Assembly (NCBI RefSeq): GCF_003019035.1
Contig: NZ_CP027447.1
Reading direction: 5' to 3' (one strand)
DNA: 64,000 nucleotides
Source: Escherichia coli
GTDB taxonomy: Bacteria > Pseudomonadota > Gammaproteobacteria > Enterobacterales > Enterobacteriaceae
Under the pieces are notes generated by a model, which had not been told where the DNA came from, made no database searches, and worked only from the letters and a program-made list of their open reading frames with translations. Shown here piece by piece: positions 4,238 through 4,873 of the stretch. The translations under genes and the position numbers were made by a program. How positions within the stretch are numbered: the first letter of the stretch is position 1; the number at the start of each line of letters is the position of its first letter.

Positions 4238-4322
4238 GTTTGTATATTAGAAGTCCGGCATCACTAATACGTGCAGATATCCGTGTATACTAGACGTATA
4301 AATTGTACAGGAGCACGATATC
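4238..4322 (+). promoter_or_regulatory. putative ccd promoter/operator (short GTATAC-like palindromic repeats upstream of ccdA)
   Basis: 85-bp spacer containing cgtgtatactagacgtataaattgtacagg immediately upstream of ccdA ATG; CcdA-CcdB autoregulation is established for ccd operons; operator position inferred only. Confidence 0.3.
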
Positions 4323-4556
4323 ATGACTGCAAAACGTACCACACAAAGTGTGACCGTCACCGTCGACCGTGAGTTAGTCAATCGCGCTCGTGATGCAGGC
4401 TTAAATATGAGCGCCACCCTTACGGTTGCGCTCAATGCTGAACTTAAAAAACATGCAGCAACACGTTGGCGTGAAGAGAACACAGAAGCTATCGCTGCGT
4501 TAAATCAATTGGCTGATGAAACCGGATGTTTCTCTGATGAGTACCGGAGCTTCTAG
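4323..4556 (+). CDS. ccdA: antitoxin CcdA (chromosomal ccd module)
   Basis: 77-aa ORF directly upstream (2-bp gap) of a CcdB-like ORF; size and position typical of CcdA. Confidence 0.8.
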   Translation: MTAKRTTQSVTVTVDRELVNRARDAGLNMSATLTVALNAELKKHAATRWREENTEAIAALNQLADETGCFSDEYRSF

Positions 4557-4558
4557 CG

Positions 4559-4873
4559 ATGCAATTTACGGTATACTGCAGTCGCGGCAGGAACGCCGCG
4601 TTTCCCTTTGTTATCGATGTTACCAGCGACATTATTGGTGAGATTAATCGCCGTATCGTTATTCCATTAACACCTATTGAACGATTTAGCCGTATTCGCC
4701 CACCAGAACGGCTTAATCCAATCCTTTTACTGGTAGATGGCAAAGAATATGTGCTCATGACGCATGAGACTGCAACTGTTCCAGTTAACGCGCTGGGAAC
4801 GAAATTTTGCGATGCCAGCGCGCACCGAACGTTGATTAAAGGAGCATTAGATTTTATGCTCGACGGGATTTAA
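4559..4873 (+). CDS. ccdB: gyrase-poisoning toxin CcdB (chromosomal ccd module)
   Basis: 104-aa ORF MQFTVY...RIVIPL...DFMLDGI; resembles F-plasmid CcdB (MQFKVY...MFWGI, ~101 aa, recalled from memory); stop overlaps apaH stop on the opposite strand. Confidence 0.85.

Follow-up and report, generated by a model that had tools for sequence, protein, structure and literature searches.

The segment between folA and apaH in the analysed DNA (hereafter the window, a 64,000-nucleotide stretch of an Escherichia coli chromosome) can be identified with high confidence as a chromosomal ccdO157-type type II toxin-antitoxin islet of Escherichia, i.e. a two-gene operon that replaces a REP spacer. An islet of this kind, at this position and with a near-identical sequence, has been described before. 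What is new is confined to minor points: the REP spacer has been replaced, a palindrome conserved in nine loci lies ahead of ccdA, and the stop codons of ccdB and apaH share one TTAA.

Organization of the locus

The coordinates of the locus are collected in Table 1. According to the ORF list and the sequence, ccdA and ccdB are separated by a gap of 2 bp (4557-4558), and ccdB overlaps the convergent apaH gene by 4 nt, its TAA occupying 4871-4873 and the apaH stop being the reverse complement of 4870-4872. Given the short gap and a ribosome-binding site that lies within ccdA, translation of ccdB would be expected to follow that of ccdA closely. An earlier note on this DNA had reported two tandem small ORFs (77 and 104 aa, 2 bp apart) between folA and apaH; they are located as it claimed, and the peptide fragments that it quoted (MQFTVY, RIVIPL and DFMLDGI) are all found in the 104-aa product.

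Table 1. Features of the folA-apaH region, in window coordinates.
Feature	Position	Strand	Basis
folA (dihydrofolate reductase; left core flank)	3739..4237	+	~97.8% identity, collinear with K-12 folA
folA stop TAA	4235-4237	+	sequence and ORF list
folA-ccdA leader, 85 bp (left islet junction and putative ccd promoter/operator)	4238..4322	+	K-12 alignment
direct repeat copy 1, TGTATATTAGAAGT	4241..4254	+	12/14 identical to 4284-4297 (TGTATACTAGACGT), 43 bp apart
half-site-like motif ACGTGCA, upstream	4269..4275	+	9-locus alignment
imperfect palindrome CGTGTA-TAC-TAGACG, candidate CcdA/CcdB operator	4282..4296	+	9-locus alignment
ccdA Shine-Dalgarno AGGAG	4309..4313	+	9 nt before ATG at 4323; GGAG kept in 9-locus alignment
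ccdA, antitoxin, 77 aa	4323..4556	+	Pfam CcdA PF07362; 2adl match
ccdB ribosome-binding site GGAG, within ccdA end	4547..4550	+	read from sequence; 8 nt before ATG at 4559
ccdB, toxin (gyrase-poison family), 104 aa, apparently intact	4559..4873	+	Pfam CcdB PF01845; solved structures
GC-rich inverted repeat in ccdB	4789..4822	-	inverted-repeat scan; 50-85 nt downstream of apaH stop, apaH transcript strand
TTAA with convergent ccdB and apaH stops; right islet junction	4870..4873	.	TTTAAGACGC common to K-12
apaH, 282 aa (right core flank; ccd-linked C-terminal form)	4870..5718	-	ORF list, K-12 comparison

Family membership of the two proteins

By profile and solved-structure comparison the two products are assigned to the CcdA and CcdB families. 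The 104-aa product matches Pfam CcdB PF01845 with E=5.1e-31 over model positions 1-101 of 101, and the 77-aa product matches Pfam CcdA PF07362 with E=4.1e-26 over model positions 2-71 of 71, a match that takes in the DNA-binding N-terminal part of CcdA as well as its CcdB-binding tail at the C-terminus. These results are in accordance with the initial suggestion, made from size and position, that the 104-aa ORF is CcdB and the upstream ORF its antitoxin. Among solved structures, CcdB matches the V. fischeri CcdB 2kmt (E=2.3e-16, residues 2-104) and the F-plasmid CcdB 1vub (E=1.1e-10, full length). CcdA matches the F CcdA 2adl (E=9.4e-6, residues 8-75), and its residues 45-76 align with the C-terminal CcdB-binding peptide crystallised in 3g7z. 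The ccdB gene lies directly downstream of the ccdA antitoxin gene in one operon, and the same layout is seen in 9 loci.

The small size of the ORFs is the sole point in favour of regarding them as chance reading frames in a non-coding spacer, or as members of another small-protein family. The probability of this is negligible in view of the full-length profile matches (E=1e-26 to 1e-31), the spacing of the gene pair, which is kept across genera, and the ribosome-binding site present for both genes; chance ORFs were ruled out by the Pfam profile and solved-structure matches.

The F-plasmid CcdA and CcdB equivalog models of NCBIfam (NF010264 and NF010262, respectively) were not reached: CcdB scored 60.7 bits vs a cut-off of 147, and CcdA 38.9 vs 100. 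The pair is therefore placed at the level of family members, and F-plasmid orthologs are excluded. This is in line with the labels of the pair in RefSeq, 'CcdA family antitoxin' and 'CcdB family protein'.

Junctions with the K-12 sequence

In MG1655, folA ends at 50302 and apaH starts at 50380, with a 77-bp spacer and no ccd genes between them, as had been expected of a short, ccd-free K-12 spacer. In the pairwise alignment the identity with K-12 runs through folA to 4247 (TAA-G/T-TTTGTATA) and perhaps extends weakly to ~4259, given a 2-bp indel; on the right it resumes at ~4866. In other words, the window shares with the K-12 spacer ~10-20 bp at the left end and TTTAAGACGC at the right end. 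Missing from the window are ~60 bp of that spacer, with the REP-type palindrome GCCGGATGCGACGCC...GCGTCTTATCCGGCC among them, and the event is therefore a replacement of the REP spacer and no simple insertion, which is a small new detail. The earlier note had called the module 'inserted'; this holds in so far as ccd lies between folA and apaH, and it does not hold for a pure insertion, since ~60 bp of the K-12 spacer, with the REP element, have been replaced. The GC content of the islet is 0.45-0.49 vs 0.53-0.59 in the flanks, and this lower value was counted for a foreign origin.

The ApaH protein has 282 aa here vs 280 aa in K-12, where its C-terminus reads ...HKDLGEAAAS. The 849-bp form of apaH accompanies every ccd-derived haplotype examined. 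So do a 6-bp indel and clustered substitutions in the 3' end of apaH beside the islet (4874-4910), also in those haplotypes in which ccd has mostly been replaced. As for the direct repeat of Table 1, the copy at 4241-4254 overlaps sequence that is partly common to the K-12 spacer (TGTATAGAATTT), and the copy at 4284-4297 overlaps the conserved operator palindrome.

Other differences from K-12 in the window

Three further sites differ from K-12. Between polB and araD, a 1.4-kb segment that is missing from K-12 (20273-21706) carries ORFs of 116, 88 and 147 aa. The longest of these (21217-21660) has only a weak Pfam match to SMI1/KNR4 (SUKH-1, E=0.0097) and no match in NCBIfam or PADLOC, and the Pfam match suggests an orphan immunity-type gene. 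Between thiB/sroA and sgrR, a 1-kb segment that is likewise missing from K-12 (31434-32445) includes a 189-aa ORF (31640-32209), for which Pfam, NCBIfam and PADLOC gave no match. The third site is at 34389-34430, where K-12 positions 77593-78853, i.e. setA, the sugar exporter gene downstream of sgrS/sgrT, are without counterpart; here ~1.26 kb of K-12 are replaced by ~40 bp in the window.

The region upstream of ccdA

The 90 bp upstream of ccdA were aligned for 9 loci from 8 genera, the flanks of which are otherwise unrelated. The best-conserved block is CGTGTA-N3-TA(C/G)ACG(TAT), found in the window at 4282-4296; in Dickeya it is a perfect palindrome, CGTGTA-ATA-TACACG. A second motif, (A/C)GTG(T/C)A, is present ~12 bp upstream of the palindrome in most of the 9 loci (4269-4275 in the window). 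A conserved palindrome accompanied by a half-site is the signature that would be expected of a CcdA/CcdB operator, and we regard the site as a candidate for it. The hexamer GTATAC lies within the palindrome (4285-4290), and F CcdA is said, from the work of Madl in 2006, to recognise GTATAC-type palindromes. As an enriched operator word the hexamer was rejected (4 copies in 64 kb vs 6.3 expected); by itself it is uninformative, and it is the longer conserved palindrome that is informative.

A sigma-70 consensus scan of 4100-5000 gave no promoter, and no terminator was found in the folA-ccdA interval or between ccdB and apaH. Transcription may thus use a weak promoter and/or read-through from folA, which means that ccd expression may be weak or depend on that read-through. 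By eye, a weak promoter candidate can be proposed at TTGTAT (4240-4245) and ACTAAT (4263-4268), with a 17-bp spacer. A terminator-like hairpin at the 5' end of ccdB (4583-4600) was discarded, as its fold is no better than that of shuffled sequences (z=-0.91).

Distribution of the islet among E. coli genomes

The locus was surveyed in 5,426 complete E. coli genomes. The ccd segment is present in 2,024 of them (37%), always as one chromosomal copy and with at least 80% coverage in 2,021, and the K-12-type REP spacer of 77 bp in 2,853 (53%). In 546 genomes (10%) the ends of folA and apaH are unjoined, the distance between them exceeding 800 bp; in the only one of these that was read, 02E060 (L018 9363-10701), a CcdA remnant of 45 aa is followed by a hypothetical gene and a DUF4291 gene on the opposite strand. 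Three genomes have a haplotype with a TnpR-passenger gene (IS1096 passenger TnpR / pRiA4b ORF-3 family). In 2017-02-2CC, the one of the three that was examined (L006 541-1271), a 204-aa TnpR-passenger replaces ccdA and most of ccdB, and of ccdB only the final 72 nt are left. APEC O78 and similar strains have a frameshifting 13-bp deletion in ccdB.

Among well-known strains, the islet is present in O157:H7, O55:H7, Nissle 1917 and S88, and it is missing from K-12, ATCC 8739 and 55989. The ccd-positive haplotype tracks E. coli lineages, and the locus is a well-studied plasticity hot spot. The four locus states agree with Mine et al. 2009 as reviewed in PMC3184786, PMC7232551 and PMC7167474. The census of 5,426 genomes updates an older PCR survey of ~400 isolates, and it is in agreement with the published picture, i.e. 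vertical spread of the toxin-antitoxin system with decay in some lineages.

Identity and state of the allele

At the nucleotide level the segment and its counterpart in E. coli O157:H7 EDL933 are 98.4% identical; the EDL933 copy is the published ccdO157 islet (Wilbaux et al. 2007, J Bacteriol 189:2712; Mine et al. 2009, Genetics 181:1557). The segment of the window is 100% identical to that of strain SCU-301, and at least 99% identity over the segment is found in 102 genomes. The earlier note had pointed to a chromosomal ccd at the folA-apaH junction of O157:H7; this is borne out by the identity with EDL933 and by PMC3184786, PMC7232551 and PMC7167474, which deal with the ccdO157 islet of the folA-apaH site as an element of a plastic intergenic region. 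Its view that the element is a strain-variable accessory one of known type and no new system also proved right, given the match to ccdO157 at folA-apaH and a K-12 locus without ccd.

The differences from EDL933 are R7C, S10G and V28E in CcdB and A54T in CcdA (window residue second). They were viewed against an alignment of 36 CcdB sequences, which comprises E. coli variants, about a dozen enterobacterial genera and F CcdB. In this alignment the CcdB of the window keeps the consensus at all 14 invariant and all 28 near-invariant columns. Position 7 is variable, with Cys also in other genera; G10 is the consensus residue, the Ser of EDL933 being the outlier; at position 28 the family has D, Q or E, and here too EDL933, with Val, is the outlier. 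Position 54 of CcdA is variable, and all conserved CcdA residues are retained. Judging from the alignment, the ccdB allele of the window, which is full length with all conserved residues kept, looks functional, and it is likely that an active toxin would be made from it.

The C terminus of CcdB deserves separate mention. The residues W99-G100-I101 are needed for killing by F CcdB, the importance of W99 having reportedly been shown by Bahassi in 1995 and Loris in 1999. The terminal likeness to F CcdB that had been proposed for the 104-aa product stands for Gly103 and Ile104, which are kept, and fails at the position of F W99, which is Asp102. Asp occupies this position in at least 90% of the 104-aa subfamily, and the V. 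fischeri CcdB has Thr. Since Asp is the norm in the subfamily and Thr is found in the active V. fischeri protein, Asp102 is regarded as a subfamily trait and no lesion. PMC7232551 quotes W99 of F CcdB as critical for toxicity; it raises the same point and leaves it open.

Hairpin within ccdB downstream of apaH

On the minus strand, the segment 4789-4822 can form a GC-rich stem of 9 bp (CGCGCTGG.../...CCAGCGCG), and the minus-strand fold of 4780-4875 has an energy of -29.2 kcal/mol (z=-3.76). Both E. coli and E. albertii have the stem, which is missing from the ccdB genes of 7 other genera despite a conserved peptide: the segment that encodes the same peptide folds with -1.4 to -7.9 kcal/mol in the 7 other genera vs -17.6 with the stem. 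In K-12 the REP element ends the folA and apaH transcripts, and it is gone here. There is a slim chance that the Escherichia cassette has been co-opted for the expression of its neighbours and, separately, that intact alleles are selected as a defence against plasmids or phages. If the co-option were true, the stem might replace the lost REP as a 3' stabiliser or terminator of the apaH mRNA, and what keeps the 3' part of ccdB in place would be a cis-acting role of its RNA and not the function of the toxin.

Proposed mechanism and persistence of the islet

By analogy with the systems studied, the 104-aa CcdB would bind the GyrA subunit of DNA gyrase and so poison the enzyme. The 77-aa CcdA, with a ribbon-helix-helix-like DNA-binding N-terminus and a CcdB-binding C-terminal tail, would neutralise CcdB and would itself be labile. 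In the 2007 work of Wilbaux, the EDL933 allele of CcdB reportedly poisons DNA gyrase via GyrA, and CcdA is said to be degraded by Lon. Repression of the operon probably comes from the CcdA-CcdB complex, acting at the palindrome 4282-4296 beside or over the promoter; this would make the operon autoregulated. Work on the mechanism of the EDL933 allele is summarised in PMC7354431, PMC2654758 and PMC3920263. According to these, O157 CcdB is neutralised by F CcdA and the reverse fails (PMC7354431), ccdO157 neither stabilises an unstable plasmid nor prevents large-scale deletions (PMC2654758), and the evolution of chromosomal ccdB is neutral (PMC3920263). As to the persistence of the islet, the most likely reading is a selfish or neutral module of the addiction type, and a physiological role would probably be absent.

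A further reading is that the module of the window is itself decaying, with a ccdA that works, a ccdB allele that encodes an inactive toxin and a locus that is a harmless relic. It can draw on the 13-bp deletion with frameshift in the ccdB of APEC O78, on E. coli CcdB proteins shortened to 57-98 aa in the protein collection, on the 72-nt ccdB remnant beside the TnpR-passenger gene in one strain, and on strain 02E060, where a ccdA remnant stands with unrelated ORFs, together with the 546 genomes in which folA and apaH are too far apart. In the 2009 study of Mine et al. roughly 30% of the variants reportedly had an inactive toxin, which also counts for decay, and so does the neutral evolution of chromosomal ccdB that reviews report (PMC3920263). 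For the allele of the window we nevertheless consider decay unlikely: it is full length, its three changes relative to the toxic EDL933 reference are at variable or consensus-restoring positions, no invariant CcdB column is changed, and the allele is common to 102 genomes at an identity of at least 99%.

Retention of the islet for a host benefit, be it anti-addiction against a related plasmid ccd, a stress or persistence switch, or defence by abortive infection, seems improbable, and more so than decay. It would fit the high frequency of the islet (37% of genomes), the occupation of the same site in E. albertii, the anti-addiction idea that was proposed for the Dickeya (Erwinia) ccd of the same 104-aa subfamily, and the 8- to 32-fold induction by bile salts of ccdB-1 at this locus in AIEC NRG857c (PMC7232551). 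However, the chromosomal O157 antitoxin fails against F CcdB (PMC7354431), plasmids carry almost only F-type ccd, at ~35% identity, and there is neither a match to a PADLOC defence model nor a phage copy. The frequent inactivation and replacement at the locus speak against strong selection, and the failure of ccdO157 to stabilise a plasmid or prevent large deletions, as stated in PMC2654758, counts against a benefit as well. We favour the reading of the islet as a functional module that is selfish or neutral. It matters little beyond correct annotation; for strain engineering it is relevant that an apparently intact gyrase poison adjoins folA and that deleting ccdA alone could be toxic.

Relatives and comparison with known ccd systems

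The cassette, i.e. ccdA of 77-78 aa, a 2-bp gap and ccdB of 104 aa, is also found in Enterobacter, two Klebsiella lineages, Dickeya, Pectobacterium and Photorhabdus, as well as in a Salmonella/Morganella element with conjugation genes (ICE). The neighbours differ at each of these chromosomal or ICE sites. In E. albertii the cassette occupies the same folA-apaH site. Plasmids carry almost only F-type ccd with ~35% identity; the lone 'plasmid' match of 97% is an 834-kb record that also carries apaH and therefore looks like a mis-assigned chromosomal fragment. Phage genomes contained no relevant ccd copy, and the PADLOC defence models gave no match for the pair. With no close plasmid, phage or PADLOC match, neither a recent origin from a plasmid or phage nor a defence role already catalogued is supported. 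The sequence comparisons point to a chromosomal, horizontally moving 104-aa subfamily that is distinct from plasmid ccd.

The closest known system is ccdO157 of EDL933, with which the islet has in common the folA-apaH site, the proteins of 77 and 104 aa, the 2-bp gap and the TTAA overlap with the apaH stop; it differs only by the allelic changes given above. The Dickeya (Erwinia chrysanthemi) chromosomal ccd belongs to the same 104-aa subfamily (59% identity); it shares the cassette layout and has a related palindrome ahead of ccdA, but another insertion site. It is the Dickeya (Erwinia) copy that the anti-addiction proposal concerns (Saavedra De Bast et al. 2008, as cited in PMC2654758). The chromosomal CcdB of V. 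fischeri (2kmt, 3jsc, 4ely) is the best solved-structure match and is also without Trp at the position of F W99; it comes from another genus and genomic context, and has Thr where the CcdB of the window has Asp.

The F-plasmid ccdAB (references: CcdB structures 1vub and 3vub, CcdA structure 2adl) shares with the pair the Pfam families, the operon order, the protein sizes and the expected gyrase poisoning with a labile antitoxin. F CcdB also has in common with the CcdB of the window the DII motif (residues 24-26), the RR-x-VIPL motif and the C-terminal Gly-Ile. On the other hand, the CcdB proteins are only ~35-37% identical, F W99 corresponds to Asp102, the pair is chromosomal here, and the O157 antitoxin fails to neutralise F CcdB (PMC7354431).
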